DNA from: an uncultured delta proteobacterium
GTDB taxonomy: Bacteria; Myxococcota_A; Polyangia; Fen-1088
Assembly (NCBI GenBank): GCA_963767925.1
Contig: CAVYGB010000008.1
Coordinates: forward strand, 3,248,239-3,312,238
Direction of reading: 5' to 3'
Length of the DNA: 64,000 bases
The notes under the pieces were generated by a model. That model worked only from the letters and a program-made list of their open reading frames with translations. It had not been told where the DNA came from and searched no databases. Shown here piece after piece: positions 7,747 through 57,242 of the stretch (position 1 is its first letter; every line of letters starts with the position of its first letter). The position numbers and the translations under genes are program-made.

Positions 7747-7811
7747 CCCTTCATTTTATGCCCTTGCGACAGGGCGGTCACCGAAAAGGTGTCCGCACCG
7801 ACGGTGGCGGC

Positions 7812-10832
<3,021 letters not shown>

Positions 10833-24964: not shown

Positions 24965-25047
24965 GAAAGTCGTATCGTAGGGCGATTTCGCCGGGCGCAC
25001 CTCCCCTTCTGCGTACTGGATGGTGCTGTTTCAGTCGATGCGGGGTC

Positions 25048-39159: not shown

Positions 39160-39234
39160 AGGCGGGTAGCTCAGCGGCAGAGCAGGCGCTTTACACGCGC
39201 TAGGTCGCAGGTTCAATCCCTGTCCCGCCTACCA
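39160..39234 (+). tRNA. tRNA-Val(TAC)
   Basis: Acceptor stem AGGCGGG/CCCGCCT; D arm GCTC/GAGC; anticodon arm GGCGC-TTTACAC-GCGCT; T arm GCAGG-TTCAATC-CCTGT; encoded CCA. Confidence 0.96.
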
Positions 39235-39252
39235 GTTAAGTTAGCGATTCGA

Positions 39253-40437
39253 CTACGTATTGGTTCGCGCCCGCGGCTCCGTTGCCACGGCGTTGCCACG
39301 GGTGAGGGCCGAGCGCGCGCCCAACATCGCGATCACGCGTTCGTCCGGGTCGGTGATGGGGGCGCCGGCGGCCAGGACCTCCGCCGGGATGGGGCGGTGG
39401 TGGTCCTCCACGTGGTGGACGTACCGCATGGTCATGGCGATGGTGGAGTGCCCGAGCCACGCCTGCAGCCGCCACGGGTTCACCCCGAAGCGAGCTGCGT
39501 GGGTGGCGAAGGTGTGGCGTGCCGAGTGCCAGCTGCGCTCGCGCAGTCCGGCCTTCTTGCACATGCGATAGACCCCGTGCTTGAGCGCCGCCTCCGCTAC
39601 CGGCTCTCCCTTCTCCCCGCAGACGATCCGGCCCACCCGGACCTGTGGCAGCGACTTGAGCGCCGATGTCAGCGATGCCGTCATCGGTACGCTCCGCCGC
39701 CGCCCGCCCTTCGGCGTTCCCTCGATGCCCTTCCGGAGTTGCCGGGTGACGGTCAGTCGCCCGGCAACCAGGTCCACGTCCTCCCACCGCAGAGCCAGAA
39801 CCTCACCGAGCCGCAGCCCTGCGTCGCCCGCCAGAAGCGCGGACACCAGCAACCACGGCGCCACCCGCCGCGCCCCCTCGAGCAGCCGGCTCCACTCCTC
39901 GAAGTCCCACGTCTCGATCTCCGGCTTCTCGCAGCGGTAGGGCCGGATCTTCGGCACGCGGTCGATGAGATCCACCTCCTCCGCGTACCTCAGGACCTTC
40001 GAGAGCACGGCCAGGACATTGTTGCGAGTCTTGAGCGAGAGCGGCTTCCGATATCGGTTGCTGCCTTCGCTCAACTTCGCCTTCAAGCCCTGGATCACCG
40101 CCACGTCGATCTGGTCGAGCCGCATATGCCCGAGGAACCCGAGCAGATGGTGCTCGAAAATCGACCGCTTCTCTACCACCGTCCCCGGCTTGTTCTGCTG
40201 CCCCTCACACCACTCCGTCATGTATCGCCCCAGGAACCACTCCTCGAACGTGGGTACTTCCTTTCCTGCCTTGGGGTTGGTGATCGGCTCGAGAATGCGT
40301 CGGATGTGGTCCTCCTCCGCCCTCTCTGCCGCCCACCTGGTGTTGCTCGCGGGCGTGCCGGAGATCCGGCGCGTGGTGCCGTCCGGAAAGCCAACGACTT
40401 TCCGGTAGCGCCACCGTCCGCGACTGTCGCGTCGCAC
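39253..40437 (-). CDS. Phage-type tyrosine recombinase (integrase)
   Basis: AGLRLGEVLALRWEDVD, TPKG, WHSARHTFATH and LGHSTIAMTMRY give the full R-K-H-R-H-Y set; adjacent to and pointing at the tRNA. The ORF-track extension to 41178 lies inside the inserted transposon. Confidence 0.93.
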   Translation of the reverse strand: MRRDSRGRWRYRKVVGFPDGTTRRISGTPASNTRWAAERAEEDHIRRILEPITNPKAGKEVPTFEEWFLGRYMTEWCEGQQNKPGTVVEKRSIFEHHLLGFLGHMRLDQIDVAVIQGLKAKLSEGSNRYRKPLSLKTRNNVLAVLSKVLRYAEEVDLIDRVPKIRPYRCEKPEIETWDFEEWSRLLEGARRVAPWLLVSALLAGDAGLRLGEVLALRWEDVDLVAGRLTVTRQLRKGIEGTPKGGRRRSVPMTASLTSALKSLPQVRVGRIVCGEKGEPVAEAALKHGVYRMCKKAGLRERSWHSARHTFATHAARFGVNPWRLQAWLGHSTIAMTMRYVHHVEDHHRPIPAEVLAAGAPITDPDERVIAMLGARSALTRGNAVATEPRARTNT

Positions 40438-40671
40438 GGGTGTTAGCTCGCAGGTAGTTTCGTAGATCACCGCGAGGATCTTCCGGCACTGCGCCCCCGG
40501 TGAGCCGGGTGAGATGGGGGGCGAGACCGGGACGGTGTGGCGGGGAGGTATTGCGGGAAGGGCGGCACCAAGGCAAAGCTCCTGGCCGGCAGGCATGGGG
40601 CCCGCCCTCGTGATCCCCAACATAAGTTGGGCCCGCCACGGCTGGTACCCGTGCGGACCCTTGGCCGGTCT

Positions 40672-41292
40672 GTGCAGCTGCGACAGGCGTCGGCACAGAC
40701 CAGCGAGGAATACGTTAGGCAGGAAGGCTGGCGACAGGCAAGGCTCGAGCGGTGCCCGGTTCACGGCGCGGCAGCGGGGTGCGGGTTCCGCCGGCTGGGG
40801 ACGTACCAGCGGGTCAGGCCGGCCGGGATGCGGGTGGCGCGGTACTACTGCCCCACGGCCCACACGAGCTTCAGCCTGTTGCCGGACTGCCTGGCGGCGA
40901 GGCTTCCGAGCGATCTCGACGAGGTGGAGCGGGTGGTCGCGGCGGTGGAGGCGGCGCCGTCCGTGCAAGCCGCGGCGGATGAGCTGCGCCCCGACATCGA
41001 GCTGCCCGGGGCGATACGGTGGGTCCGTCGGCGGCTGGGCCCGGTGCGGGCCGCGCTGCTGGCGCTGGTGACGATGGTGCCAGAGCTGGCAGGCTCGTGC
41101 GCCCCGACCATCACCGAGGTGGGGCAGCGGCTGGACAGGCCGGTGCTCCGGCAGGTGCGGGCTCAGTTCGAGAAGCAACTCGGGAAGGTGGCCGCGCCCG
41201 TCGGATTCGGGCGTCCGCCCTCACCCCGCCGACGAGGCCGGACACCCTGCGAACACGACCCGGGGCCAGACCCGCCGACGCGATCCCGGTAG
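40672..41292 (+). CDS. Transposon accessory protein with Cys/His motif
   Basis: RCPVH...GC...GTYQR...YYCP...FSLLPDCLAARL; first gene inside the element. Confidence 0.7.
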   Translation: MQLRQASAQTSEEYVRQEGWRQARLERCPVHGAAAGCGFRRLGTYQRVRPAGMRVARYYCPTAHTSFSLLPDCLAARLPSDLDEVERVVAAVEAAPSVQAAADELRPDIELPGAIRWVRRRLGPVRAALLALVTMVPELAGSCAPTITEVGQRLDRPVLRQVRAQFEKQLGKVAAPVGFGRPPSPRRRGRTPCEHDPGPDPPTRSR

Positions 41293-41333
41293 CGGTGGTG
41301 CGTGGCGCCCACGAGGGCGCCAAGGAGGCACCG

Positions 41334-42690
41334 ATGGACATCAAGGACGACGACAAGGAGCGACGCCACGCCGTCGCGCTGTTCCGGTACGGGCTGATCG
41401 CGGACCTATTGCACTGGCCGCGAGGAAAGCGCGGGCTCGGCGAGATGATCGCCAAGAAGGCCGAGCGCGAGCACGACATTCCCGGGTCACGACGTTGCCG
41501 GGTGGCACCAGAGACGATCCGGGACTGGCTCAAGGACTACCGACAAGGCGGCTTTGATGCCCTGCTGCCCAAGCCCCGGCGGGACCAGGGGCAGGCGCGC
41601 GCCATCCCGCAGTCGGTGGTGGATCTGCTGTGCATGGTCAAGGAGGACAAGCCGGCGCTGTCGGTGCGGATGGTGATCGAAGCGGCGCGCGCCTCGGCAG
41701 AGGTGCCGCAGGACGTGGAGCTGGCGCCGGCGACGGTGCACCGGGTGCTGTCCCGAGCCGGCCTGATGGAGCGGCGGCCAGACGAGCCGACGAGCAACGA
41801 CCGGCGCCGCTTCTCCTACCTGAAGGCAGGTGAGCTGTGGATGAGCGACGTCATGCACGGACCGGCAGTCCTCGACGAGCGCAAGCGCCGGCGCAAGACG
41901 TATCTCATCTCCTTCATTGACGACGCCACGCGGGTGATCCCCTATGGGGCTTTCGCGCTCGGGGAAAATGTCGCGTGCTTTCTGCCCGTGTTCGAGCAAG
42001 CCATCCGCCGCAGAGGGATCCCGAAGCGGCTCTACGTTGATAATGGGGCGGCGTACCGGTCGAACCACCTGTCGCTGGTGTGCGCGAAGCTGGGAGTCAC
42101 GCTGATCCACGCCCGCCCGTACCAGCCTCAGGGCAAGGGCAAGCAAGAGCGTTGGCATCGCGAGGTCCGACGCCAGTGCCTCGGCATCCTCGGCGAGCAG
42201 GACACGACCAGCCTGGAGGCGCTCAACCGCAGGCTCTGGTCCTGGATCGAGGGCGAGTACCACCAGGCCCCGCACAAGGGCCTCGACGGTGAGACGCCGA
42301 TCGAGCGCTGGGCACAGGTCTCCGATGAGGTACGACTGCCCGACGCCAATATCGACGTGGGCGACCTCTTCCTCTTCGAGGAAAAGCGCAAGGTCCACAA
42401 GGACAGGACCGTGAGCCTGCGGGGCGTGATCTACGAAGTCGACGCCGCCCTCGTCGGCGACACGGTCACCCTGCGTTTCGACCCCTCCCGCCTCGGCAAG
42501 CCGGTCGAAGTCTGGGCCAAGGGGCGCAAGGTCGCACTCGCACGGCGGGTGGATGCCTACGCCAACTGCTTCGTCAGGCGCGACAACGAGGTCCGCGACA
42601 CCCTGCGGGTCGACGGCGCCTCCGCGCCGCCACCGCCCGAGGGCCTGCGTCTGCGCGACTTCGACGGCGGTAGACGAAGGAGGCCGCTGA
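41334..42690 (+). CDS. DDE transposase (integrase core plus Mu-like C-terminus)
   Basis: AAGGAGG RBS; LWMSDVMHG, IDDATR, YVDNG, GKGKQERW. Confidence 0.9.
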
Positions 42691-43487
42691 TGTACCGCAA
42701 GCACTTCGGCTTCAATCGCCATCCCTTCGGCAAGGAGATCGATCCCGACGACCTGTTTGCGTCAGGGTCCAGCCAGGAATTGGCGGCGCGGCTCGGGCAC
42801 CTCATCGACATGCGCGGCATCGGGCTCGTCACCGGCGACAGCGGAAGCGGCAAGACCACCGCCTGCCGAAAAGTCGTCTCGGCGCTGCACACCGGCCTTC
42901 ACCGCGTCGTCTACGTCGCTCACTCGACCGGCAACGTGATGGATGTCTACAAGACCATCGCCTGGGAGATGGGCCTGCCCACCGAGCGCAACCGCGCCGC
43001 CGTCTACCGCCAGATCCGGACGGAGGTGACCCGGCTGACCACGGAGGCTCGTTGCCGCCCGGTCCTCATCGTCGATGAGGCCCACCACCTGCGGCCCGAC
43101 GTCCTCGAGGACCTGCGCTTGTTGACGAACTACCAGATGGATGCCGAAAACCGTCTGTGCCTGCTCCTGGTCGGCCAGACGGAACTGCGGCGTCGCCTGG
43201 GCATGGCGGTCTACGAGGCGCTCAGCCAGCGCATCGTCGTCCGCTACCATTTCGGGGGGCTCACACGCGACGAACTGGCCGCCTATCTCGCGCACCGCTT
43301 GCGGCTGGCTGGGACCGAACTGCCCCTCTTCGAGCCCGCCGCCATCGAGGCGATCTTCCAGGCCACCGGCGGCCTGCCGCGCAAGGTGAACCTGCTGGCC
43401 CACCACGCGCTCATGGCCGCAGCCCTGGCGCGCGCCAAGACCGTCACCGCCGAGCACGTGCAGGCCGCCCTGCCGGAGGTCGGGTGA
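42690..43487 (+). CDS. ExeA-like AAA ATPase transposition helper
   Basis: Own RBS and TGATG overlap; GDSGSGKT Walker A, IVDEAH Walker B, GLPRKVN. Confidence 0.9.
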   Translation: MYRKHFGFNRHPFGKEIDPDDLFASGSSQELAARLGHLIDMRGIGLVTGDSGSGKTTACRKVVSALHTGLHRVVYVAHSTGNVMDVYKTIAWEMGLPTERNRAAVYRQIRTEVTRLTTEARCRPVLIVDEAHHLRPDVLEDLRLLTNYQMDAENRLCLLLVGQTELRRRLGMAVYEALSQRIVVRYHFGGLTRDELAAYLAHRLRLAGTELPLFEPAAIEAIFQATGGLPRKVNLLAHHALMAAALARAKTVTAEHVQAALPEVG

Positions 43488-43801
43488 TGCCCCGGCGCCA
43501 CCGCGTCCTCGACCCTGAGCCGCTGCTGCGGCCCACGCCCGGCGAGCTCACCGCCGCACCCGAGCTCGGCGTCTTGGCCGCACTCGACGCCAATCTGGCC
43601 ACGGCCGCCTACCAGCTACACGCCGAGCACCCCGACCTCACCCTCGAGGCCCTCGCGCGAGGTGACCTCCCCTCGGCCCAGGCGCGCACCGCCAGCCTCC
43701 TGCTCTTCCGCTGCGCCGACCTCAGGGCGGCCATCAGGGACTACCGCGCCATCGCCGTCGACTCCGATCCCGACGACGACCAGCTCCATCTGCCCTTCTG
43801 A
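43487..43801 (+). CDS. Small transposon accessory protein
   Basis: TGATG coupling to the ATPase; 104 aa ending DDDQLHLPF. Confidence 0.7.
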   Translation: MPRRHRVLDPEPLLRPTPGELTAAPELGVLAALDANLATAAYQLHAEHPDLTLEALARGDLPSAQARTASLLLFRCADLRAAIRDYRAIAVDSDPDDDQLHLPF

Positions 43802-43974
43802 TCGCCCGCTGACCCCACCGCCAGAGCCCCGGTCCCGAGCACTTCGGCGCCGGGGCTCTCGCTTTCTAGCCCCTGCTGATCCCGCCTGCACTCGGCGTGC
43901 AATCTGGGAAACCACCCCACTGCACGCGCGCTTTTGGCCGACAAAGCCGCGGTGAAATAGCGTGAGAGACAACA

Positions 43975-44746
43975 CCTCGTCGACCACGCCCAGCTGCGCG
44001 AGCGGCGCAATCAACTGCGCCATCCCCAGTACACCGCGCCCGAGCTCATGGCGACCGGCCCCAACCAAGCGTGGAGTTGGGACATAACGAAGCTGAAAAC
44101 CTTTCGTGAAGAGCCAGTACCTGCACCTCTACGTCATCCTCGACATCTACTCGCGCTATGTCGTCGGCTGGCGAGTCGAGACATGCGAATCCGGCGAGCT
44201 CGCCAAGGAGCTCATGGAAACCGCCTGCGAGCGGCAGAAGATCCCACCCGGCCTCCTCACCATGCATTCCGACAACGGGCCCCGCGATGATCTCTCAGTC
44301 GGTGGCCTCGCTGCTCATCACCCTCGACGTGGCCAAGAGCCACTCGCGGCCCCACGTCTCCGACGACAACCCCTTCTCCGAGGCGCAATTCAAAACGCTC
44401 AAGTACCGCCCCAACTTCCCCGAGCGCTTCGCCTCCCTCGAGCACGCTCGCGCCTTCCTGCGGGAGTTCTTCGCCTGGTACAACACCGCCCACCACCACA
44501 GCCGGTTGGCCCTGCTCACGCCCCACGACGTCCACCACGGCCTCGTTGACCAGCGGATCAGCCAGCGAGCCGCCGTCCTGGACGCCGCTTACGCCGCGAA
44601 GCCAGAGCGCTTCGTTCGCAGGGCACCGACCCCTCGCCGCCCACCGGAAACCGTTTGGATCAATCCACCCAAGCAGTCCCCCGCGACCGAGGAGACGCGA
44701 GCGTAAATTCAACAGTTGGCGCTCTCAAAGTCGTTGACAGGTTCCG
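43975..44746 (+). mobile_element. IS3-family remnant (3' part of the transposase plus right end)
   Basis: PNQAWSWDITKL, ILDIYSRYVVGW, HSDNG, DNPFSEAQFKTLKY, WYN; frameshifted; 5' part missing. Confidence 0.85.
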
Positions 44747-45226
44747 GCGGCGCTGACTCCGCCCGTCACCTTCGCTCCGCTTCCTGCGGGTGCCCGACGC
44801 TTGGTTGTCCATTCCGATCATGGGCGGATCGGTGTCCTGATCTGCAGCGAGATCCTCGAATCGGCGGCTCTGGCGAGCCTGACAGGCAAGATAGGGGTTT
44901 TGCTGGTGCCCTCATGGAACACGGACACCGGAACGTTCGAACACGTCGCGCATGCCGCAGCCAGCATGCTCGTGCACTGCTTTGTCGCCGTGGCAAACAA
45001 CGCGGAGGCCTCCGACTCACGCATCGTAGCTCCCGTGGCTGCGCCTCAGCACCTCCGTGATTGGGCACGAATTATCCATCGCGAACACAGTCGCGTAATC
45101 TGGGGGGACCTCCCGGTTGCGAATCTGCATAGTGCCCATGCGGTCCCCTCAACTCCTCCGGCCGCCCCTCAAAAGCGTGTCCCGGTCACTTTCAGACCTC
45201 TCCCTCCGGGATGGGAAGAACTTTGA
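44747..45226 (+). pseudogene. C-terminal carbon-nitrogen hydrolase fragment, RT-nitrilase (DRT1/UG1)-like
   Basis: GVLICSE, VPSWNTDTGTF, HCFVAVANN, DSRIVAP, terminal FRPLPPGW; cut at its 5' side by the IS3. Confidence 0.7.
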
Positions 45227-45893
45227 ACTTCGACTAGACACCACAGGCTCGGCGGGGCCCCGCCAGCGATGTGGCGATCACGCGGGGTGCACGTCGCTGC
45301 CGTGGTCCCGAGCTACCGGAAAGCCGAGGGATCGCACGGCTCCGAGAAACCCCACCGGCTATTTTTTTCCGTCCCTTGCAACAACCGCCGGAAAATCGCC
45401 CACCGCAGGATGAAGGACGATGACGTGACCAAGGGACAGCGGGGATGGTTGTGGTGGCGTTTCAGGTGGGGTGGACTGCTCGCGGCGATTCGAGCCGCGC
45501 TTGGATTGCCAGCATGTCGCAGTCAGCGCGCGTCCCCATACGCAGCTACTGCACGTGCCAACCAATCTACGCACGTGCGCGTCGACAAACTCCACAAGTG
45601 GATCGCCGCTCTACGGACCGACCCCGTGGCGCTCGCAATCTCCCAGAGCCGAAAGCGTCGAGGGGTCTCTCCCGCGGCGATTCTCGGGTGGCATAGGCCA
45701 CCTGCCCTTCGAGCAGACCAGCAATGTCCAGCACTCCATCAGTATTCACGGAAACAACCTCAAGATGTACCATTACCTGGTCTCCCGTTCAGGTCAGCTG
45801 CCCTGACGTGACGCGTCGTTTATGTGCCAGAGCGCTAGTTCCTTGGGCCTCGTGCTTCGGCGCCCCGATGCACCATAATGATAATGTTGTGGT

Positions 45894-46331
45894 GTGCTTC
45901 CGTCCCTCGATCCGGATACAGGTCTCCTGCCCGCCGGCGAGCACGTGGCTCCTTGGGATGAAGTGCTGGAGAGGTTTGGATGGAATGACAGGCGCCGTGG
46001 ACTACTCGATGGACTGGCTGAAGCCCTCGAATTGCTCGCGAGCGTCGGCTGCCGTCGCGTGTGGATCAACGGCAGCTTCGTCACGGCGAAGGACGAACCG
46101 GGTGACGTGGATGTCTGCTGGGACACCGCCGGAGTCGACCTGGACCGCATCGATCCCATCTTCCGCGACATGTCTCGTGGCCGAGCAGCGCAGAAGGAGC
46201 GCTTCGGCTGCGAGTTCCTCCCTAACGTCACCGAGACAGGCAGCGGCCTCGTCTTCGCAGAGTTCTTTCAACAGGAACGGGACGGTTCCCGGAAGGGAAT
46301 AGTCGTGCTGGAGCTGGGCGAACAAACATGA
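45894..46331 (+). CDS. Minimal nucleotidyltransferase-fold protein (DUF6932-like), putative toxin
   Basis: GLLPAGEH and WINGSFVTAKDEPGDVD (GS...DxD); overlaps the HTH gene. Confidence 0.75.
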   Translation: MLPSLDPDTGLLPAGEHVAPWDEVLERFGWNDRRRGLLDGLAEALELLASVGCRRVWINGSFVTAKDEPGDVDVCWDTAGVDLDRIDPIFRDMSRGRAAQKERFGCEFLPNVTETGSGLVFAEFFQQERDGSRKGIVVLELGEQT

Positions 46332-46765
46332 TCACCAACGACGTGCAGTATCGGTCCACGAAGGCCCACCTCCGGAAGTTCGAGGACGCCCTTGCGAATC
46401 TGGAGGCCGCCGCCGGGGACAAACCGACCAAGCTCCAGCGACTTGAGATCGATGCGGTGACTGCCCAGGCCGAAGACCTCCGCGCCGAGATTCGCGAGTA
46501 TGAGGCGCTGTCATCAGGAAAGATTTCGACATTCGAAGCGTCGTCGCTCGCTGGACTAGCGAGCTTGCTGATCAAGGCGCGCATCGCAAGGGGGTGGAGC
46601 CAGCGACGTCTGGCGGATGAACTGCGAGTCGCCGAACAGCAGGTTCAGCGGTACGAGGCCACCGAGTACCGCACCGCCAGCCTGGCGCGGATCGGTGATG
46701 TGGCCGCCGCGCTCGGTGTGGACATCGCCGAAACGGCGCGGCTGCGGGATCGCAGCGCCGCATGA
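46328..46765 (+). CDS. XRE HTH protein, putative antitoxin
   Basis: MITNDVQY N-terminus; ARIARGWSQRRLADELRVAEQQVQRYE. Confidence 0.85.
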   Translation: MITNDVQYRSTKAHLRKFEDALANLEAAAGDKPTKLQRLEIDAVTAQAEDLRAEIREYEALSSGKISTFEASSLAGLASLLIKARIARGWSQRRLADELRVAEQQVQRYEATEYRTASLARIGDVAAALGVDIAETARLRDRSAA

Positions 46766-46777
46766 AGGACCTCGGCT

Positions 46778-46936
46778 GTTGCCATTCCGTTGCCACGGAC
46801 CGCGGATCTCCCTGGAACTCAGCGGAACCAGCAGGAACGGGACAGGGACCGTAACCAGCGAGAAGGACTGCAAGTCGGTGCCGCACCACGGGTTTTCCGA
46901 TCTCCTTCTCGCAACTTCAATCCCTGTCCCGCCTAC
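46778..46936 (+). repeat. attR-like element, copy 1 (arm repeats + hairpin + 21-bp tRNA 3' core)
   Basis: GTTGCCATTCCGTTGCCACGG ... TTCAATCCCTGTCCCGCCTAC; the core equals 39212-39232. Confidence 0.92.
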
Positions 46937-46971
46937 GAATACAGAATGATCTCGCGGCGTTGGAGCGCCGA

Positions 46972-47008
46972 TTGACCTGGCAACACTCGTGTTCTACATT
47001 TCTGTAGA
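46972..47008 (+). promoter_or_regulatory. Sigma70-like promoter and palindromic operator of the GNAT TA operon
   Basis: TTGACC-17 bp-TACATT; TCTACA-TTTC-TGTAGA palindrome overlaps the -10 box. Confidence 0.65.
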
Positions 47009-47023
47009 GAAGAGGACGCGAGC

Positions 47024-47305
47024 ATGGCGGACACGCAAATCTCGGCATTCATCTCCGACACCACGAAGGAGCTCGTGGAGCGGTACGTGGAGGCCCACGG
47101 GGTCAAGAAGGGTCACCTCCTCGAGGAGGCACTGCTTCACCATCTGCAGGCACTCCGGGAGCTGCCGGCGGATCTGATCGTTCCCCCCAGACTCGTTGTT
47201 TCCCGGGAAAGCTTCGAGCGCGTCGCAGGGTTGGTTGAGCAGCCACGTGAGCCGACGCAGGCTATGCGAGATCTCATGACTGGCAAGAAGGCTCGACGGC
47301 CCTGA
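47024..47305 (+). CDS. Antitoxin (RHH/DUF1778-like)
   Basis: 93 aa; RLVVSRESFERV...PTQAMRDLM tail; TGATG-coupled to the GNAT gene. Confidence 0.78.
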   Translation: MADTQISAFISDTTKELVERYVEAHGVKKGHLLEEALLHHLQALRELPADLIVPPRLVVSRESFERVAGLVEQPREPTQAMRDLMTGKKARRP

Positions 47306-47823
47306 TGGCCCGTGAGGTCCGCCGGCTTCGTCCCGAAGACGACCGGTCGGGATTCCGCTCCGGGAACATCGAGCTCGACCGCTTCTTCCAGCGCTTCGCG
47401 GGCCAGAACCAGTTCCGCCATCACATAGGGACAACTTACGTGGCCGTCGACGGCGGGGCCATTCTCGGGTTTGCGACGGTTGCTCCTTCCGAGATCGCGA
47501 CGGCCGATCTGCCACCATCCCGGAGAAAGCGACTGCCGCAATATCCCCTTCCAGTCCTGCGACTGGCGCGACTCGCGACCGACGAGCGCGCCCGTGGGCA
47601 GGGTGTTGGCAGCGCTCTCTTGCGCGCGGTCTTCGCCTTGGCCCACCAACTCGCGGCCGACTACGGTTGCATCGGCGTTGTCGTCGACGCCAAGGCGGAT
47701 GCGGTCGGCTTTTATGAGCGCTTGGGGTTCCTCCCCCTCGACGTGCAAGGTGGTCAACTGGGGGAACGACCAGAACCCTTACCGATGTTCGTTGAGCTCG
47801 GCGCCATCCACCGCCCGACATGA
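47305..47823 (+). CDS. GNAT acetyltransferase toxin (AtaT/TacT-like)
   Basis: FRSGNIELDRFF, LPVLRLARLATD, GQGVGSALL, VVDAK, FYERLGF. Confidence 0.9.
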   Translation: MAREVRRLRPEDDRSGFRSGNIELDRFFQRFAGQNQFRHHIGTTYVAVDGGAILGFATVAPSEIATADLPPSRRKRLPQYPLPVLRLARLATDERARGQGVGSALLRAVFALAHQLAADYGCIGVVVDAKADAVGFYERLGFLPLDVQGGQLGERPEPLPMFVELGAIHRPT

Positions 47824-48000
47824 TCACGAGCACACGATATCGCTTCACGAAGGCTCGTCTGCGAACGTTCGAACAGGCGCTCGGCGCCCTGATAGCCGCA
47901 GCAGGGGCCAAGCCTACGAGGCTCCAGCGCCTCGAGATCGAGGCGGTGCGCGCTTTGGCCGAAGACCTTCGAACGGAGATCCGCGACCGGAAGGCGCTGC
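47820..48000 (+). pseudogene. 5' fragment of an XRE antitoxin paralog
   Basis: MITSTRYRFTKARLRTFEQAL...LQRLEIEAV aligns with the N-terminus of 46328-46765; HTH part missing. Confidence 0.8.
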
Positions 48001-48032
48001 CGTCCGAACACATTGCCACCGTGGGAGCCTCC

Positions 48033-48353
48033 ATGAAGATCGTCACGCTTCGCGACCCAAACACCGGGCGCACCTTCGACCGCGCAGCAGTGCGGACGGC
48101 CATGGAGTTGCCCGCCGACTGGCCGGACGACGCGAGCGTGATCGTCACGGTCGACGATCTAGAATGGATCCAGCCGACTGGCCAGAGGGTCGTGCGTCAC
48201 TCGGTGACCCGATGCCTGGAGCAATTCTTCGCTGGCGAGCGCTGTCTGATTCCCACACGGCGTGTTTCGGACGATGGGTTGACCCTCTGGATGGTGGTCG
48301 AGGTCGTCGTGGCGCTCCACCTCGGCGACCCTCCCACGGACGATTGGTTTTAG
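48033..48353 (+). CDS. Hypothetical protein
   Basis: GGGAG RBS and ATG; 106 aa; in frame with the preceding fragment. Confidence 0.55.
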   Translation: MKIVTLRDPNTGRTFDRAAVRTAMELPADWPDDASVIVTVDDLEWIQPTGQRVVRHSVTRCLEQFFAGERCLIPTRRVSDDGLTLWMVVEVVVALHLGDPPTDDWF

Positions 48354-48391
48354 CCAGCCCCCTGGGCGGTGCCGTCGACCGCGCGGCGGGT

Positions 48392-48453
48392 CCGTTGGGG
48401 CCGTGCCACGAAGAGGCGGTCTCGGTGGAACTCAACGGAACCAGCAGGAACGG
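48392..48453 (+). repeat. Partial attR-like element, copy 2 (no tRNA core)
   Basis: CCGTGCCACG...TCTCGGTGGAACTCAACGGAACCAGCAGGAACGG matches 46808-46840. Confidence 0.85.
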
Positions 48454-48580
48454 CCGGCCTTCCAGTGCCAGCTTGTCTCCGGAGGGATACCCGGCGAAGC
48501 AGGTCGCCGCATCAGCCGGAGCCTGTTGTCGCTTGGCTTGCCAGCCCGTCCATTCCTGGTGTTGGATGCCCGGAAGAGAG

Positions 48581-49321
48581 ATGCCAAAGGTTACCGTCGT
48601 CAATCCCTGGCACTGGCTCAATGCGGACGGCTCGTTTCCGCCGGAGCCACGCCTGCGCAAGCGAATCGCTCGCGTCGCCCAGTGCATCGAGTACGGTGGC
48701 GGCCTGCGCATCGGACAGGCCCGGCAAACGCTCATCGCGTGCCGTGGACGCGACTGTCTGGGGTTCATGGTCGTCCTGAAGCAGAAGGACGAGGCCATTC
48801 AGGCATTCTGCGCCAGCTGCACGCTGGACGAGTTCTTGATCTACGAGTGGGAGGAGACCCCTTGGGCCAAGGGGCCTCCGGTTGCCGTCGAGGTCGCCAG
48901 CCTCGCCAGCTCGAGCGGCGGCGACGCGAAATCCTCGCAGCGGTCGAGCGCGCACGACCTCACGACGACGCTTGAGCGGACGCTCACCTTGCTGGGTAGT
49001 CCTTTGTCGGCGGCCCATATTCACGAGCTGATCGCCAAGAGTGACCATCCTGGGGTGGTGGCCGAGGCGGTGATGGCCTCGATCCCTGGACCTCCACCCA
49101 CCAGGGGAGCGGTCGAACGCTTTCTCCCCGTCCTCATGAGCGTTTGGAACGAGACACCACGACCCGACCTGAAGGGCCGATCGCCGAACCAGGCCTACCA
49201 CGAAGGCCCTTCGTCGCCGCCCGAGGCAGCGCAGCCCCTGGATCTCGGACGAAATCGCCCGTGTCCTTGTGGCAGCGGCAAGAAGTACAAGCGCTGCTGT
49301 ATTTCGGCCAAGACCAACTGA
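48581..49321 (+). CDS. SEC-C motif protein with Cys-rich N-terminal domain
   Basis: C-terminal GRNRPCPCGSGKKYKRCC; internal C...C and CxxC. Confidence 0.82.
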   Translation: MPKVTVVNPWHWLNADGSFPPEPRLRKRIARVAQCIEYGGGLRIGQARQTLIACRGRDCLGFMVVLKQKDEAIQAFCASCTLDEFLIYEWEETPWAKGPPVAVEVASLASSSGGDAKSSQRSSAHDLTTTLERTLTLLGSPLSAAHIHELIAKSDHPGVVAEAVMASIPGPPPTRGAVERFLPVLMSVWNETPRPDLKGRSPNQAYHEGPSSPPEAAQPLDLGRNRPCPCGSGKKYKRCCISAKTN

Positions 49322-49480
49322 CACGGATCGCGGTGCACACGGGCAACGGGACATCACGACATCGAGCTGGAGGCCGTGCGCGCTTTGGCCGAAGAACTTC
49401 GAGCAGTCGGCGACCCTGCCCGCGGACGATTGGGCGCCCCTGGCCGATGCCCTTGGACCCGCTGCGTGTCTGCTCGGGCC

Positions 49481-49540
49481 GTTGCCATCCCGTTGCCGCG
49501 GACACCGGATCTCCGTGGAACTCAACGGAACCCAGGGACA
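49481..49540 (+). repeat. Partial attR-like element, copy 3 (no tRNA core)
   Basis: GTTGCCATCCCGTTGCCGCGGAC...GGATCTCCGTGGAACTCAACGGAACC. Confidence 0.88.
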
Positions 49541-49718
49541 CGCCCATCGACTTCGGTGCGCACCACCGTTTGAACAGCTCGGGCTTGGTCCATGCCTCGA
49601 ACACGATGCGCGCCGGAGCATTGAAGGTTCGTTTGACGACCAGGTCACGGTCGGATTTTCGGTCCACCGTCGTGCGGTTCTTCATGGGGGCGGGCTCAGC
49701 CTCTCTTCTTGCGTCCAT
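49535..49718 (-). pseudogene. Truncated SRPBCC (AHSA1-like) gene
   Basis: LVVKRTFNAPARIVFEAWTKPELFKRW, then runs into repeat copy 3. Confidence 0.82.
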
Positions 49719-50061
49719 TGACGATCTCCTTCTGTTTCAGTTCTTCGACCACCTCGTCCAACTCGTCGAAACGTGAGGCCCAGAGCTGGCGGTACCTCTC
49801 GATCCACGCCGTCTCTTCGTCCAGTCGGCGCGGGCCGAGCTTGCAGGTCCGCACACGCCCGACCTTCTCCGTGGTGACGAGACCGGCCAGTTCCAAGACG
49901 CCGACGTGCTTCTTCATACCCGTGAGGGTCATGTCGAACTTCTCGGCAAGCTGCGTGATCGAAGCGTCTGCACGTCCGAGCTGCTCCAGAACGCCGCGTC
50001 GGGTGGTGTCCGAGAGCGCGGCGAACGAGGTATCGAGGCGGGCTCTCTCCTACTGCACCAT
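49696..50061 (-). pseudogene. ArsR/SmtB regulator with premature stop at codon 4
   Basis: ATG GTG CAG TAG, then in frame LDTSFAALSDTTRR...KHVGVLE...GRVRTC. Confidence 0.8.
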
Positions 50062-50139
50062 GTGGTTCAGTATAGAGGCGCGGATGGGCGGCGTGGAAGC
50101 GCAAGCTGAGCGGTTTGGCGGTGGGAGCCTGGGGCCGGC

Positions 50140-50405
50140 CCCCCTTCCGGATCTGCCTGGTGACGGTCAGTCGTCCGGCGATCAGGTCCACGTCCTCCCA
50201 GCGGAGGGCCAGCACCTCTCCCAGCCGCAGCCCTGCATCGCCGGCCAGAAGCGCGGAGACCAGCAACCACGGCGCTACAAGATCGGAAAAACCGCGGGAT
50301 GCGCTCACGCCACCTGCTCGCTCCCGCCGATGCCGCTCCTGCAATCCGGCCTTCCGCTTCGAGTGCTCGACCGCCAGGAGACTCCTCAACGCGTTCAGCA
50401 GCTGC
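50140..50405 (-). pseudogene. Fragments of a paralogous tyrosine integrase
   Basis: VAPWLLVSALLAGDAGLRLGEVLALRWEDVDLIAGRLTVTRQIRKG is near-identical to the integrase at ~39728-39865. Confidence 0.88.
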
Positions 50406-50458
50406 CACCCCAAATTGGCCTTGTATCTAACCATCCGGTTAGGTAACCATATGGTGAG

Positions 50459-50815
50459 ATGCAGGCCGACACGTTGAGCCAGACGTTCGCCGCGCTCGCC
50501 GATCCCACCCGCCGCGCGATCTTGAAGCGGCTGGCGGCGGGACCCGCGAACGTGAAGGAGCTGTCGCGACCGTTCGACATGAGCGGTCCGGCGGTGTGCA
50601 AGCACCTGCGCGTCCTCGAGCGTGCGGGCCTGGTCCGGCGCCGTCGAGAAGCGCAGTCCCGCCCGCGCGAGCTCGATCCCGCGCCGCTCAAGGAGATCGC
50701 CGCGTGGACCGACGCGTACCGCGAGTTCTGGGACGCGAGCTTCGATCGGCTGGGTGCGTATCTGAAGCAGCTGCAACCCACCGGAGGGCGCCATGCGCGT
50801 CGCCGCAAGCGCTGA
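50459..50815 (+). CDS. ArsR/SmtB regulator
   Basis: FAALADPTRRAIL and KHLRVLERAGLV; upstream TAACCA-N2-GGTTA-like palindromes at 50428-50457. Confidence 0.92.
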   Translation: MQADTLSQTFAALADPTRRAILKRLAAGPANVKELSRPFDMSGPAVCKHLRVLERAGLVRRRREAQSRPRELDPAPLKEIAAWTDAYREFWDASFDRLGAYLKQLQPTGGRHARRRKR

Positions 50816-51314
50816 TCTGATCGACGACCGCGAGTACGCGGCGCCGCCCGAGCTGGTCTTCGAGGCGTGGACCAAGGCCGAGCACTTCGCGCGCTGGTTC
50901 GCGCCCGACAACGTCGAGGTGCCGCTCTGCGAGATCGATGCGCGCCCCGGTGGCGTGATCCGATTCCGGCATCGCTGGCCGGAGGGACAGCTCGTCTCGA
51001 TCCGCGGCGTGTTCGACGAGGTCGTGGCGCCCACGCGCCTGTCGTTCACGTTCACGTTCGTCGATTCGAACGATCGCCCGACGGTCAACGCGATGATGCC
51101 CGAGTGGCCCGTCGGGGCGCACATCGTGATGACGGTGGAGCTGGTTGCCACCGCGCGCGGGACTCGCATGACCGTAGCGCAGCGGGTCGCCGAACCGGAG
51201 CTCGCCGATTCGGCACCGATCGTGCGCCATCGGAAACTCGCAGCGATCGGTTGGAGCCAGACGGCGGAGCGTCTCGTCGCGTATCTCGAACGGAGGACAC
51301 CATGGGACTCTTGA
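50793..51314 (+). CDS. SRPBCC domain protein
   Basis: APPELVFEAWT, DARPGG, GWSQTAERL. Confidence 0.88.
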   Translation: MRVAASADLIDDREYAAPPELVFEAWTKAEHFARWFAPDNVEVPLCEIDARPGGVIRFRHRWPEGQLVSIRGVFDEVVAPTRLSFTFTFVDSNDRPTVNAMMPEWPVGAHIVMTVELVATARGTRMTVAQRVAEPELADSAPIVRHRKLAAIGWSQTAERLVAYLERRTPWDS

Positions 51315-51859
51315 CCTTCAGCATCAACGTCACCCTGGACGGCTGCGTCGACCACCAGGAGGGAATCGCCGACGACGAGACACACGCCTTCTTCACCCGC
51401 CTCATGGACGAGGGCGGGGCGATGCTGTGGGGCCGCGTCACCTACGAGATGATGGAGAGCTACTGGCCGGCGGTCGCCCGCGGCGACGAGGAGGCGCCGC
51501 CGGCGATGCGCGAGTGGGCGGTCAAGCTGGAGGCCAAGCCGAAGTACGTGGTGTCGTCGACGCGAAAGGACTTCCCGTGGACCAACAGCCACCACATCGC
51601 CGGCGACCTGCGCACGGGCGTGCAGAAGCTCAAGGACGCGACCCCGGCCGGCGTGCTCCTCGGTAGCGGCAAGCTCGCGACCGAGCTGGACCGGCTGGAT
51701 CTGATCGACGAGTACAAGTTCCTCGTCCACCCCAGGATCGCCGGCCACGGCCCGACCCTGTACCAGAGCGGGCTGCCCAGCACGCGACGGCTCGAGCTGG
51801 TCTCGGCGAAGCCGCTCCGCAGCGGCGCGGTCGCCATGCACTACCGGCGCGCGCGCTGA
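51302..51859 (+). CDS. Dihydrofolate reductase family (RibD C-terminal-like) protein
   Basis: NVTLDG, LWGRVTYE, KYVVSST, GSGKLA, LIDEY, HPRIAGHG. Confidence 0.92.
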   Translation: MGLLTFSINVTLDGCVDHQEGIADDETHAFFTRLMDEGGAMLWGRVTYEMMESYWPAVARGDEEAPPAMREWAVKLEAKPKYVVSSTRKDFPWTNSHHIAGDLRTGVQKLKDATPAGVLLGSGKLATELDRLDLIDEYKFLVHPRIAGHGPTLYQSGLPSTRRLELVSAKPLRSGAVAMHYRRAR

Positions 51860-52167
51860 CTCAGCCCCCCGAACCAGACAGCCTTCGTTGAGGAGACACT
51901 CCGCAGCGCGCTCGGGCGAATGTGTCCGGTGTGTGACGGTGCCGGTCGTATTCAGTGGGGCGCCGTCAAGGTCTCCGACTTCAGGCGGGCGGCGCTACCT
52001 CGGCTCGATCGCCAGGGGGCTGTGCAGCTCGAAGGCCTCGTTCGATTGGCTCGTGAGCTTGCGGCCAGCGAACTCGACCTTGCCACAAACGTGGACGCAC
52101 CGGGCTTCGACTTCCTGCTCAAGCGGGGCGACAGCGTCGTCATGCGCGGAAGATCCACTGCGGCCTT

Positions 52168-52325
52168 GTTGCCATTCCGTTGCCACGGCCACGGGATGTG
52201 GGTGGAACTCAACGAACCAGCAAGGAACGGGACAGGGACCGGGACCATCGGGAAGGACTGCAAGTTGGCGCCACACCAAAGTTTTCCGATCCCCTTCCCG
52301 CGTGTTCAATCCCTGTCCCGCCTAC
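52168..52325 (+). repeat. attR-like element, copy 4 (arm repeats + hairpin + 22-bp tRNA 3' core)
   Basis: GTTGCCATTCCGTTGCCACGG ... GTTCAATCCCTGTCCCGCCTAC; the core equals 39211-39232. Confidence 0.92.
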
Positions 52326-52612
52326 GATTCGAAACAGCGATCCCCTCGGGCTTCGCGGTCGCCGGGTCCGCGGAGACTATCGAAGATCCCCGCCAACTGG
52401 TGCCCGCGGAAGGCCCGGGGGGCTTCACGCGCGCGATGTAGCGTCCGAGGATGGCTGTGCCAATTCTCGGTGCCGGGACCTCCGTCAGAACACGCTACGC
52501 CAACGACCCGCCCGGCGTCGAAAAGTCAATCCGACATCGCCGAGCAGGCCGACGGCCTCGCCACCAACCAAAGCCGAGACGCGACAAGTGGCGCTCGGAC
52601 TCGTAGGGCCGT

Positions 52613-52853: not shown

Positions 52854-52939
52854 ATCGTACCCGCTGCACGGACCCCGTACTTCCAGCCTGACGGCATCAG
52901 AGCCAGATTGACGGGGTGACGAACACGAGCGCGAAAGGC

Positions 52940-54679
52940 TCAGGGCTGCGGACGTGGTTCCTGTTCCGCCGGCGGCTCGATCTTCGGCGGGACAGAGAGC
53001 GGGCCGAGTTCGGCGACGAGTTCGGCCGGGTTGAGGCGGTCGCGGGTGCGAGTCCAGAATTTCGGGGCCAGCTCGAGGTAGCGATCGCGCGGCCAGTGCG
53101 GCAGGACCCGGAAGAGGTCACGCAGATACTGCTCGGGGTCGAGGCTGTGAAGACGAGCCGAGGCGACGAGGGAAAACAGGTGACCGGCGGCTTGGGCGTT
53201 GTCGTCGGAGCCGACGAAGAGCCATGCCTTCCTGCCCACGGCGATGCGGCGCAACTCGCGCTCCGATCCGTTGTTCGTCGGCTCGAGCCGACCGTCGTCG
53301 AGGTAGCGCGTGAGCGCGGCTTTCTGTCGCACGCAGTAGCCGAGGGCGGTGCGGAGCAGACCGCGTTAATCTTTGACCCGCGCGAACTCTATCTGGGCCC
53401 ACTCGAAGAAGGCTTCAAGATGCGGTCGGGCATGAGTCCGGCGCAGAGCCGTTCGCTCGGTCGGCGAGTAGTTCTTCCACTGGCGCTCCAGGGCGAAGAT
53501 GCGGCCCAGGCGGGCCAGCCCTTCGCGAGCGACGGCGCTCTTGGCAATCGTGGCCTCCCACAGCTTCCTTCGCGCGTGTGCCAGGCACCCGACCTCGGTG
53601 CGCTCGGGGGGGTCAGCAGCAGCGTCGTCAGGGGGATCGTCGGGCGGGCGGAACAGGATGTCATAGACGCTCTTGGCGTCGGCCTGCACGTAGCCGGCGA
53701 AGCCCTTGAACATCTCGCCGACGGCGGTGGAGGTCTCCTTGGGCGTGTACTCGAACAAGACGTGATCGCGATCGGCGATTTGCACGAAGTAGTGGCCACG
53801 CCGGCACGGTTGGCGCCCCTTCTGGGTGTCGCGCAGCGGCTGGACCAGGACGCCGGTGGCATCGGTCGAGATGCAGAAAGCGTTAGCCATCGCGTCCTTG
53901 CGCATGGCCTCGACGACCGTAGCGCCACAGGTGGCACCGGCGTGCTCCATCCAGCGGCTCATGGTGCCCCGGTCGATCGGGACGCCGAGGCGGGCGAAGC
54001 GATTCTCCTGACGGTGCAGCGGAAGGCCGTCGCAGTACTTGTCGACAACGATGTGCGCGACCAACGAGACGGTGGCGATCGAGCGCGGAAACATCTCTGG
54101 CGGCATCGGCGCGGTGATGATCATGGTCTTCTCGGGCGCTGGGTCGGCGGCGTCGGGCCGGCGGTACTTTACCCGAGAGACGACGAGCCGGCGTGGGCCG
54201 CCACGCTGCCACACGATCTTGCTCGACTCCTCGGAGGCGCCCAGCCGCTCGGCCTTGCCCTGGGCGACGAGCGCGTCCATCTCGGGGTTGGGAATCTCGA
54301 TGTGCTCCTCGAGCATCTTGATTCGGCGCAGATCTCGGCGACCCTTGGGTCGGGGCCGGGAAGCGGTCTTGCCGTCGGCGCCGTTGCCGTTGGCTCCAAT
54401 GCCGATGGTGCCGGCAAGCTTGTCGAGTTCGGCGAGCTTATCCTTGAACTCGAGCTCAAGCTGCTTGGTGTCGACCCGCTCGGCCTTGGCGATGAAGATC
54501 CGCCGGCGCATGAGCTCGACGTCGAGCCACAAGCGATCGTAGGCAGCGCGCAGCTCGTCGCGCTCGCGGACCAGATCGGCGATCCGGGCGTCCCTGTCGG
54601 CGAGCGCAGATTCGAGCCGCGCGATCCGCGCGGCAGCGTCGGTGGGGGGCGTGCTCGTCGAGAAATCCGCGCCGGCCAT
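52940..54679 (-). pseudogene. tnpC: IS66 transposase TnpC with in-frame TAA at 53366-53368
   Basis: KYCDGLPLHRQ, GCLAHARRK, TNNGSERELR and GRKAWLFVGS in one frame. Confidence 0.9.
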
Positions 54680-54731
54680 TCAGTCTCTGAATTGATACTC
54701 GCGGGCCGATGGTTTCGTTGATTCATGATGA

Positions 54732-55082
54732 TCAATGAACGCTCGCCCGCCGACGCTTCGATTTAGCGGCCTCGACGTCGATGCCGTCGAGCAGTGCCTC
54801 CAGGGCGCGCTCGTCGATGGCCACGCTGGTGGCACGTTCGTCGAGCGGCGCGGGCAGCTTGAAGACCCCGACGTCGAGACGTTTATAGAAAACGCACATC
54901 CCTGAGCCGTCGAAGAAAAACACCTTGACGGCCGTGCGATGCTTCCCGAAGAAGATGAAGAGCGCGCCCGAGCGCGCCTCGCGGCCGATTCGCTCCTCGA
55001 CGATGCCTGCCAGCCGATCGAAGCTCCACCTCAGGTCGATGGGCTCCAGCCCGATGAACACCTCCACGCCGTGTGGGATCAT
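54732..55082 (-). CDS. tnpB: IS66 accessory protein TnpB
   Basis: PIDLRWSFDRL, LFIFFGK, DGSG...KRL. Confidence 0.92.
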   Translation of the reverse strand: MIPHGVEVFIGLEPIDLRWSFDRLAGIVEERIGREARSGALFIFFGKHRTAVKVFFFDGSGMCVFYKRLDVGVFKLPAPLDERATSVAIDERALEALLDGIDVEAAKSKRRRASVH

Positions 55083-55480
55083 CGCCCCACTCCGCGTGTC
55101 GCCCGCTGTTCCAGAATCTCCAGAACCGCCGCCAGCATCGACTCGTCGAATCCAGCCGGCACAACGATCCGCGCACCACCAACCTCGACCTGCAGCGGCG
55201 CTGGCGTCAGCGTCGTCCGGCTGCCTGCGCCAGAGGAAGCCCGCTTCGGGACTCGCACTACGCGCAGAAGGCGCATCCGGGTTGCCGCCACCTTCTTCGG
55301 CGCACGGCTAGCCGGACGCCGACGTGTCTTGCCAAGCCGCCACCCCCAGTGCCGAAGAAGTCCTGCAGAAAATCCCTTCCCTGCGCAGAAGTCTTCGGAC
55401 TTCTGGCCGCTCGCCCGCCATGCCTCTATCCGCGCTGCCCATTCGGTTGCTGTCGCCATGGCATCCAGGATGCCGGGCAC
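55079..55480 (-). CDS. tnpA: IS66 accessory protein TnpA
   Basis: WAARIEAWRASGQ...FC; VEVGGARIVVPAGFD. Confidence 0.85.
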   Translation of the reverse strand: MPGILDAMATATEWAARIEAWRASGQKSEDFCAGKGFSAGLLRHWGWRLGKTRRRPASRAPKKVAATRMRLLRVVRVPKRASSGAGSRTTLTPAPLQVEVGGARIVVPAGFDESMLAAVLEILEQRATRGVGR

Positions 55481-55521
55481 CGCTCAACTTGAGTAGAACG
55501 GGGTCCGTGCACCGGGTACGA

Positions 55522-56962: not shown

Positions 56963-57242
56963 GGACGTCTCTTACAACGGGCTCACCAGGATAGATCACC
57001 GCGGCCCGCGGATCCGTTGGGTGGCCGCGGTCACACAGACCGTGCCGCGGAGCCGAACGTCAGAGGTCAGGCATCATAGGAAGGTGGCGTCCTGGAGTAC
57101 AGCGACGGTCGAGGCGATTCTCCGCGGGGGATCGTGGTGCTTGGCGGATCGGTGGGCGTGGACCGGCCGCCGCAGTTGGCTTCGGAGCCATGCTTTAGCG
57201 GCTCGAAGAGACGCGCCAGAGCAGCTCGGCTGAACTGGCGGT

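Follow-up and report, generated by a model that had tools for sequence, protein, structure and literature searches.

A tRNA-Val gene of an uncultured myxobacterium and the probable remains of a tandem array of related integrative islands

The repeats downstream of tRNA-Val(TAC)

The tRNA gene tRNA-Val(TAC) (39160–39234, plus strand; ARAGORN and Rfam) is the only tRNA gene called in a 64,000-nucleotide stretch from an uncultured delta proteobacterium (GenBank assembly GCA_963767925.1, contig CAVYGB010000008.1, positions 3,248,239 to 3,312,238; in the following the window, to which all coordinates refer), and it is followed by the gene of a tyrosine integrase, int, and by a row of repeats that resemble the attachment (att) sites of integrative elements. 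The last 21 nt of the tRNA before the CCA (39212–39232, TTCAATCCCTGTCCCGCCTAC) form the core of the left attachment site, attL. As a preliminary description of this DNA, made from the sequence alone, had stated, this tRNA 3' end recurs exactly further downstream: the 21-mer is found at three positions of the window, 39212, 46916 and 52305, and 100 shuffled sequences gave none. At the second and third position the core closes an element of approximately 160 nt that starts with a direct GTTGCCA pair of 11-nt period, and the two copies (46777–46938 and 52167–52327) are 84% identical over 163 columns. They represent the right attachment sites attR1 (46777–46936, plus strand), which comprises an arm with the pair at 46778, three GGAAC units and an 11-mer inverted core-like motif at 46838–46848 before the core at 46916–46936, and attR2 (52167–52325, plus strand), in which the arm is likewise followed by the core (52305–52325) and which constitutes the outermost junction of the island.

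Two further copies of the arm are devoid of a core. The first, p1 (48391–48453, plus strand; 82% identity over the 50 nt of 48404–48453), has lost the first unit of the pair and keeps an imperfect second one, a detail missing from the preliminary description, which had otherwise correctly reported both core-less copies. The second, p2 (49477–49543, plus strand; 87.5% over the 56 nt of 49477–49532), has kept the full pair. From start to start the arm copies are 1613, 1090 and 2687 nt apart, in agreement with the 1.6, 1.1 and 2.7 kb estimated before. On the integrase side, the same direct pair with its 11-nt period (GTTGCCAC, 39281–39300, plus strand) is present 49 nt from the core, within the last codons of int, where it had also been seen previously; we refer to it as the P' arm. 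All three cores and all four arms have the same, direct orientation.

A profile of the 70-nt arm run against the 64 kb found exactly four copies (E 1e-15 to 3e-20), the next match having an E of 0.12, and a search of the window for GTTGCC...GTTGCC pairs gave 5 matches versus 0.02 expected, four of them belonging to the sites described here (39281, 46778, 49481 and 52168) and the fifth, at 36270, being unrelated. A chance origin of the repeats is ruled out by this expectation and by the shuffles (0 of 100). As the copies differ by 12–18%, they are neither an assembly artefact, which had already been thought unlikely, nor a recent duplication. The G+C content of the region is 61–70%, compared to 72–80% in the flanks.

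How could such a row of repeats have arisen beside a single integrase gene? The preliminary description had offered two explanations: the tandem integration of several related elements with subsequent collapse, or an integron-like platform in which the one integrase captures integrase-less mini-cassettes that end in att arms and mobilises them in trans. The latter idea draws on the direct orientation of four arms and three cores around small accessory cargo and on the presence of only one complete integrase, and it is weighed below wherever the evidence bears on it.

The integrase and its attachment sites in related genomes

The int gene (39256–40470, minus strand; GTG start at 40437 or 40470) encodes a lambda-Int-like protein of 394–405 residues with three domains. 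The alignment columns of R220, K254, H315, R318, H341 and Y350 are invariant across 35 sequences, and we take these residues to be the catalytic ones, their roles being assigned from established knowledge of the family. The AlphaFold2 model (mean pLDDT 85) consists of an N-terminal three-stranded sheet with a helix (strands 12–14, 20–27 and 33–38; helix 45–64), a helical core-binding domain and a catalytic domain, and ends in a disordered tail (residues 391–405). The best match of the model in a fold search was full-length lambda Int (1z1b_A, E 9.8e-14, 381 columns); IntI4 ranked 22nd, after lambda Int, XerA and Tn1549 Int. Searched by sequence, the N-terminal 100 residues had no meaningful match among PDB sequences. 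Judged by the modelled fold, Int would be a lambda-type integrase with an N-terminal domain that resembles arm-binding domains. An integron-type enzyme, on the other hand, is not what the profile scores suggest: Int reaches 51.7 bits with TIGR02249 (cut-off 265) and 23.9 bits with NF011946 (cut-off 435), which speaks against an integron-like platform. Collections of phages and plasmids yielded integrase matches only, all with less than 30% identity to Int. The core is located 24 nt past the int stop codon and the int open reading frame (ORF) is unaltered by integration.

Homologues of Int are numerous, with 584 proteins at E ≤ 0.001 among 8000 scored candidates, the named ones being assigned to 'Polyangia bacterium'. 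One integrase, P0001, is 97% identical to Int and encoded on a contig of 97.5 kb. For comparison 80 loci were taken from one scan of genome contigs, nearly all of them metagenome-assembled genomes of Kofleriaceae, Haliangiales or Myxococcales, with flanks of at most 10 kb; at least 8 kb upstream of int is available in only 27 of them. A tRNA gene lies tail-to-tail with int, within 300 nt of its end, in 61 of the 80 loci (72 have sufficient sequence), and 12 kinds of tRNA are represented. In 66 of the 80 loci the tail of int contains an exact 7-mer direct pair, as compared to 139 of 1526 control windows (9%). These pairs have an 11-nt period in 65 of 66 cases, contain GCCAC in 47 and lie inside the ORF in 65 of 66, their median distance upstream of the stop codon being 62 nt. 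In one locus (L004) both units of the pair carry the identical change at the cost of amino acid changes.

Moreover, an attR could be found in L038, L060, L080 and L021, with the pair 130–153 nt before the core, and in the first three of these the unit variants of attL and attR agree; in L068 the same unit as in attL is present upstream, but the core was not found. The tRNA 3' end is repeated at the far end in L021, L034, L060 and L080, and L038 provides the fifth attR. A second copy of the tRNA end occurs in 4 of 62 tRNA-bearing loci, within the sequence of the flanks, and two additional copies in none; the elements delimited in this way measure 3.3, 6.9, 10.3 and 11.2 kb. Of the 72 loci with room for it, 61 have an HTH_17-like (Xis/AlpA-like) gene no further than 700 nt upstream of int. 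A second integrase-like match was obtained in 1 of the 80 loci, at a different tRNA.

These comparisons back the earlier suggestion that the repeats are arm-type sites of a phage-type integrase: that the GTTGCCA pairs are of this kind is strongly supported by their conservation in the related loci, and Int would be expected to bind them. They also support an attP of approximately 230 bp, in which the core would lie between a P and a P' arm. According to the preliminary description, relatives with only one large element and a single attR would contradict an array of cassettes. Wherever an attR could be resolved it is indeed single, albeit within flanks of at most 10 kb and in distant relatives, and this too weighs against mobilisation in trans.

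Several related loci have recognisable cargo. A 6.9-kb element (L080) carries a CBASS cyclase, a SAVED effector, Mrr and Shedu, a 3.3-kb element (L038) carries RhuM, L002 carries AbiE, and L060 contains a DUF3987/Toprim primase-like gene and a second integrase. In L002 (positions 7600–8000), an integrase gene (70% identity to Int) with its tail pair and a core-like site borders not on a tRNA but on DNA that contains an inverted GGCAAC pair. The arrangement could be an attP-like site or a tandem junction; since the two ends of the contig do not overlap, it does not qualify as a demonstrated circle.

The segment between the two right attachment sites

The tRNA and attR1 delimit an element of 7.7 kb, E1 (39233–46936), in which int is intact. 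Its terminal gene (46328–46765, plus strand) encodes an XRE-family helix-turn-helix (HTH) protein of 145 residues, of which the N-terminal 73 recur downstream. The segment between the core of attR1 and the end of attR2 (46937–52325, 5.4 kb) contains stubs of this terminal gene and an integrase that is reduced to a 46-residue remnant. One XRE remnant, with 63% amino acid identity to the E1 gene over 73 residues, begins at 47820 and is joined in an ORF of 177 codons (47820–48353, plus strand) to a protein family of about 104 residues. This partner stands alone in other records (P0123 and P0125), and the fusion is present in one further record at 87% identity; what had been listed as a plain hypothetical gene is therefore an XRE N-terminus fused to another family. 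A second XRE fragment of 41 nt (49362–49402, plus strand) is 90% identical to 47932–47972. The repeated unit is consequently longer than the 160 bp assumed in the preliminary description, since parts of the gene that precedes the arm are repeated along with it, although the 160-bp copies as such were described correctly. The possibility that the arm belongs to the XRE gene only, as its downstream or regulatory sequence, is ruled out by the pair in the tail of int and by the co-variation of attL and attR in the relatives. The integrase remnant (50141–50278, minus strand) had been overlooked when int was counted, correctly, as the only complete integrase. It consists of 138 nt encoding 46 residues of the catalytic domain, is 96% identical to Int in amino acids and 88% in nucleotides, and is oriented as int.

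Beyond the core that ends at 46936 there is neither a GTTGCC pair nor any likeness to the integrase-side flank, and the sequences that follow the three cores on the right are unrelated to one another. Given the XRE remnants, the second integrase piece and the lack of an integrase-side arm at this position, the units between the repeats appear to be the right ends of related islands and not self-contained cassettes, as which the preliminary description had regarded them. Each unit holds two to six genes or gene fragments, including regulators and genes on the minus strand. The first of them contains a small ORF of 93 codons followed by a GNAT acetyltransferase gene of 172 codons (47024–47823, plus strand). 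They had been called a toxin-antitoxin pair, which their layout resembles; the upstream ORF, however, matches no antitoxin family, its best Pfam hit having an E of 0.14. Between p1 and p2 a SEC-C motif protein of 246 residues is encoded (48581–49321, plus strand; likely ATG start at 48581). Between p2 and attR2 are found a fragment of an SRPBCC (AHSA1) gene with an ArsR-family gene (49521–50049, minus strand), which are diverged inverted paralogues of the operon that follows on the plus strand and encodes ArsR, SRPBCC (AHSA1) and the DHFR-like RibD_C (50447–51859). The region 49521–51314 thus displays two inverted, diverged ArsR-SRPBCC modules (39% and 48% amino acid identity) on either side of the integrase remnant.

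Taken together, this content is hardly what would be expected of cassettes mobilised in trans. The core, at which a crossover would have to occur, is missing from 2 of the 4 copies, the units carry stubs of one and the same terminal gene and part of a second integrase, both strands carry genes, and no integrase-side arm follows the core at 46936. With the integrase scores and the single attR of the relatives added, we consider an integron-like platform very improbable.

Tandem accretion and decay

The region is likely to consist of related integrative islands that accumulated in tandem and then decayed, all of them having targeted the 3' end of tRNA-Val(TAC). Tandem integration of related elements followed by collapse, the first of the two earlier proposals, fits all of the evidence. 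In the mechanism envisaged, a heterobivalent integrase of the lambda type would recombine the tRNA gene with the attP of approximately 230 bp, composed of a P arm with the GTTGCCA pair some 138 nt ahead of the core, a core of 21 nt corresponding to the tRNA from T-loop to discriminator, and a P' arm that repeats this pair 49 nt past the core, in the last codons of int. Each integration would rebuild the tRNA and shift the old 3' end outward. The newer E1 would have entered the regenerated tRNA and displaced its older relatives, which deletions and insertions would subsequently have cut down to right-end stubs: XRE-type remnants with an arm and no core at about 48.4 and 49.5 kb, the 46-residue integrase piece at 50.1 kb and the complete attR2 at 52.3 kb. 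This order of events we infer, and the 5.4 kb between attR1 and attR2 would then be what decay has left of one to three older relatives. Such an integrase-less remnant bounded by att sites is a cis-mobilisable element (CIME). This reading, like that of accretion, is supported by the ORF at 47820, which fuses an XRE stub to a protein that stands alone elsewhere, and by the remnant of a second integrase with its 96% amino acid identity. Complete pairs of sites exist only as attL x attR1 and attL x attR2, and the CIME remnant could move only jointly with E1.

Several observations weigh against this interpretation. The integrase-side arms of the older elements are entirely gone. No array was found in the 80 related loci, of which only the 27 mentioned above extend at least 8 kb upstream of int, and in the closest relatives (64–75% identity) either contig ends intervene or no attR is present within 6.5–7.7 kb. 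When the arm module and the cargo genes of the window were sought in the 80 loci, only a weak transposase match was obtained (L036, E 9e-8), and as neither arm module nor cargo is held in common with the relatives, the independent arrival of each stub is not demonstrable. Furthermore, p1 and p2 lose their similarity at the same position of the arm (about 46840 in attR1), within approximately 3 nt, which random deletion does not predict. They are also alike upstream (48322–48442 versus 49407–49532, 70% over about 130 nt), where attR1 and attR2 do not share the similarity, so that p1 and p2 could be one duplicated stub and not two arrivals.

This last point leads to a simpler history, in which only two integrations took place, that of E1 and that of one older island, and the core-less arms stem from segmental duplication and rearrangement within the latter. 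The upstream similarity confined to p1 and p2, including the 90% identity of the XRE fragments, and their common end point are what one would expect in this case. However, the arms of p1 and p2 have diverged from each other about as far as from those of attR1 and attR2 (82–93%), the sequences directly to the right of the break are unrelated, and p2 has the full pair, of which p1 has lost the first unit. A history of two integrations alone is unlikely in our estimation.

State of the integrase-bearing element

A further possibility is that the composite is still active. Int might excise E1 alone (attL x attR1, 7.7 kb) or E1 together with the remnant (attL x attR2, 13.1 kb), the latter amounting to mobilisation in cis. 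In favour of this, int has remained intact, the 21-nt core is the same in all three copies and the arms of attL, attR1 and attR2 are complete, and cis-mobilisation of such tandems has been documented elsewhere (PMC5704250). On the other hand, an Xis-like gene, present in 61 of 72 relatives, is missing. No HTH_17 gene was found anywhere in the window, and E1 has apparently lost this gene of its family; its absence also speaks against an integron-like platform. Moreover, E1 is riddled with transposase genes, and no replication, transfer or packaging genes, including the Pfam families of relaxases and coupling proteins, were detected among 170 ORFs between 39.2 and 57 kb. That the composite is active today seems rather unlikely.

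Directly upstream of the int start, in the position of the Xis-like gene of the relatives, lies a DUF6431-like ORF (40537–41292, plus strand; atlas score 0.98). It is followed by an overlapping frame of 822 codons (41019–43487, plus strand) that combines an HTH domain, a DDE domain of the IS481/Mu-like kind, a Mu-transposase C domain and an AAA_22/TnsC-like ATPase. A DDE transposase and a TnsC-like ATPase are usually encoded by two genes. From its domains the frame is predicted to be an inserted transposon, and no terminal repeats were identified for the region 40537–43487. Because the Xis-like gene is lost and these two ORFs occupy the place directly upstream of int, E1 and with it the array are probably fixed in place; E1 would be a degraded element that is probably unable to excise efficiently.

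Downstream of these two ORFs, a frameshifted remnant of an IS3-family transposase (43997–44706, plus strand) precedes a C-terminal fragment of 162 residues of an RT-nitrilase protein (DRT UG5; 44738–45226, plus strand; PADLOC RT_UG5-nitrilase, E 3e-22), which is a putative remnant of a defence gene severed by IS insertions. The right end of the island is taken up by the gene of a DUF6932 protein (45894–46331, plus strand; PADLOC candidate PDC-M63A, E 2e-15) and the XRE gene. The two genes overlap by 4 nt, and the XRE protein has an N-terminal extension of 75 residues. By their arrangement they may form a two-gene defence or toxin-antitoxin module.

A palindrome in the right attachment sites

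Both attR arms contain, 73 nt upstream of the core, the motif CGGGACAGGGA, which, when reverse-complemented, matches part of the core exactly; one of 500 shuffles gave as much. Together with an inner stem of 8 bp, this 11-nt inverted copy of the right half of the core forms an imperfect palindrome (46833–46935 and 52223–52324), and one compensatory change distinguishes attR1 from attR2 in the inner stem. The palindrome surrounds the crossover region, and both p1 and p2 break at the left edge of the CGGGACAGGGA motif. The shared break could possibly reflect descent from an already truncated stub, deletion stimulated by the palindrome, or recombination at the core-like site.

That the arm can fold as an imperfect palindrome holding the core, with a compensatory change in its stem, can be counted in favour of an integron-like platform. 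In the window the complementarity of arm and core reaches p values of 0.002–0.005. In a duplex test of L038, L060, L080 and L021, by contrast, p was 0.18–0.43 (Fisher 0.28), and complementarity as a feature of the whole family is not supported, as it is significant in the window only. The z-scores of the single-strand folds were -3.4, -0.96, -2.9, 0.0, -0.7 and -2.7. It could be imagined that the 11-nt inverted motif closing the palindrome of about 95 nt is a functional site, whose recombination or processing generated both core-less copies, and that the locus is a working accretion platform from which Int still excises E1, or E1 with the 5.4-kb remnant, and in which stubs are re-used as cargo. 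We regard this as very unlikely.

Comparison with known systems

A decayed tandem array has well described counterparts. For ICESt1 and its CIMEs in Streptococcus thermophilus a three-step model has been described, consisting of integration, decay to an att-bounded CIME without an integrase and further integration at the same site (PMC5704250), and a survey of islands counted 125 tandems of at least two and 4 of at least three islands in tRNA genes among 3919 islands (PMC4383910). The locus shares with ICESt1/CIME and with the Islander/TIGER tandems the repeated integration of elements of the same specificity at one tRNA 3' end, the older copies without integrase, the direct att repeats between the segments and a remnant movable only in cis (PMC5704250, PMC4383910). 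It differs from ICESt1/CIME in that conjugation and mobilisation genes are lacking and the host is a myxobacterium, of the class Polyangia to judge by the names of homologues; decay has also gone further, two internal att sites having no core and the integrase-bearing element having no Xis-like gene. As Islander demands an integrase and a tRNA fragment of its own for each member, the locus cannot be counted as an Islander array. Unlike integrative and conjugative or integrative and mobilisable elements, it has no relaxase, coupling or transfer Pfam family among the ORFs scanned.

With lambda Int and the KplE1 integrase IntS, the integrase has in common the three-domain fold, the phased direct repeats flanking a core in a tRNA 3' end and, in the relatives, the Xis-like gene upstream. 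Here, unlike there, the P' pair is placed in the last ~20 codons of int, which encode a tail predicted to be disordered. In KplE1, by contrast, attL overlaps the int promoter (PMC2951348). A coding sequence that overlaps its own attachment site is known from another myxobacterial integrase, IntP of the myxophage Mx8 (PMC6070905, PMC4383910). The crossover in Mx8 occurs inside int and integration alters the C-terminus of the protein, whereas in the window only an arm pair is found inside int. Mx8 was not among the 12 best of 466 phage records, and all matches were below 60% identity.

Similar to integrons, one tyrosine recombinase stands beside a row of small accessory units with a recurring element, and the attR arm is palindromic around the crossover. 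In contrast to integrons, the integrase is not of the IntI type, two of the four sites have no crossover core, and the units are not single promoterless ORFs in one orientation. The locus is best described as a composite of an integrase-bearing island and a CIME, which is a known way of island build-up and not a new integron-like system.

Neighbouring features

Beside the island lies an IS66-family element (52855–55521, minus strand) with terminal inverted repeats of 27 nt (93%) and a transposase frame broken in two at 53366. On the right the element extends over the final ~35 nt of an ORF of the sigma-70 family (55487–56971), which the insertion may have altered. At some distance on the other side of the tRNA, 19748–25030 (minus strand) encodes a protein of 1761 residues with a Ser/Thr kinase, an AAA_16 ATPase, GAF domains and a histidine kinase, a combination that is ordinary in myxobacteria and agrees with the placement of the source organism among them.

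Significance

The locus is of interest mainly as a caution. Repeats resembling att sites beside a single integrase mimic a cassette array, yet they may have been left behind when islands integrated again and again at a tRNA hot spot and decayed. A more useful by-product of the analysis is the att architecture of a large, uncharacterised integrase family of the Kofleriaceae and Haliangiales, of which the attP has become readable: the core lies in the tRNA 3' end, each arm has a TGCCAC-type pair phased by 11 nt, one of the two pairs being located in the last codons of int, and an Xis-like gene is found upstream. The small islands of this family carry defence and toxin-antitoxin cargo, for example CBASS with Shedu, AbiE and RhuM, and the architecture could aid in mapping island ends in myxobacterial genomes. 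In addition, the family offers candidate tools for site-specific integration in myxobacteria, which are hard to engineer.

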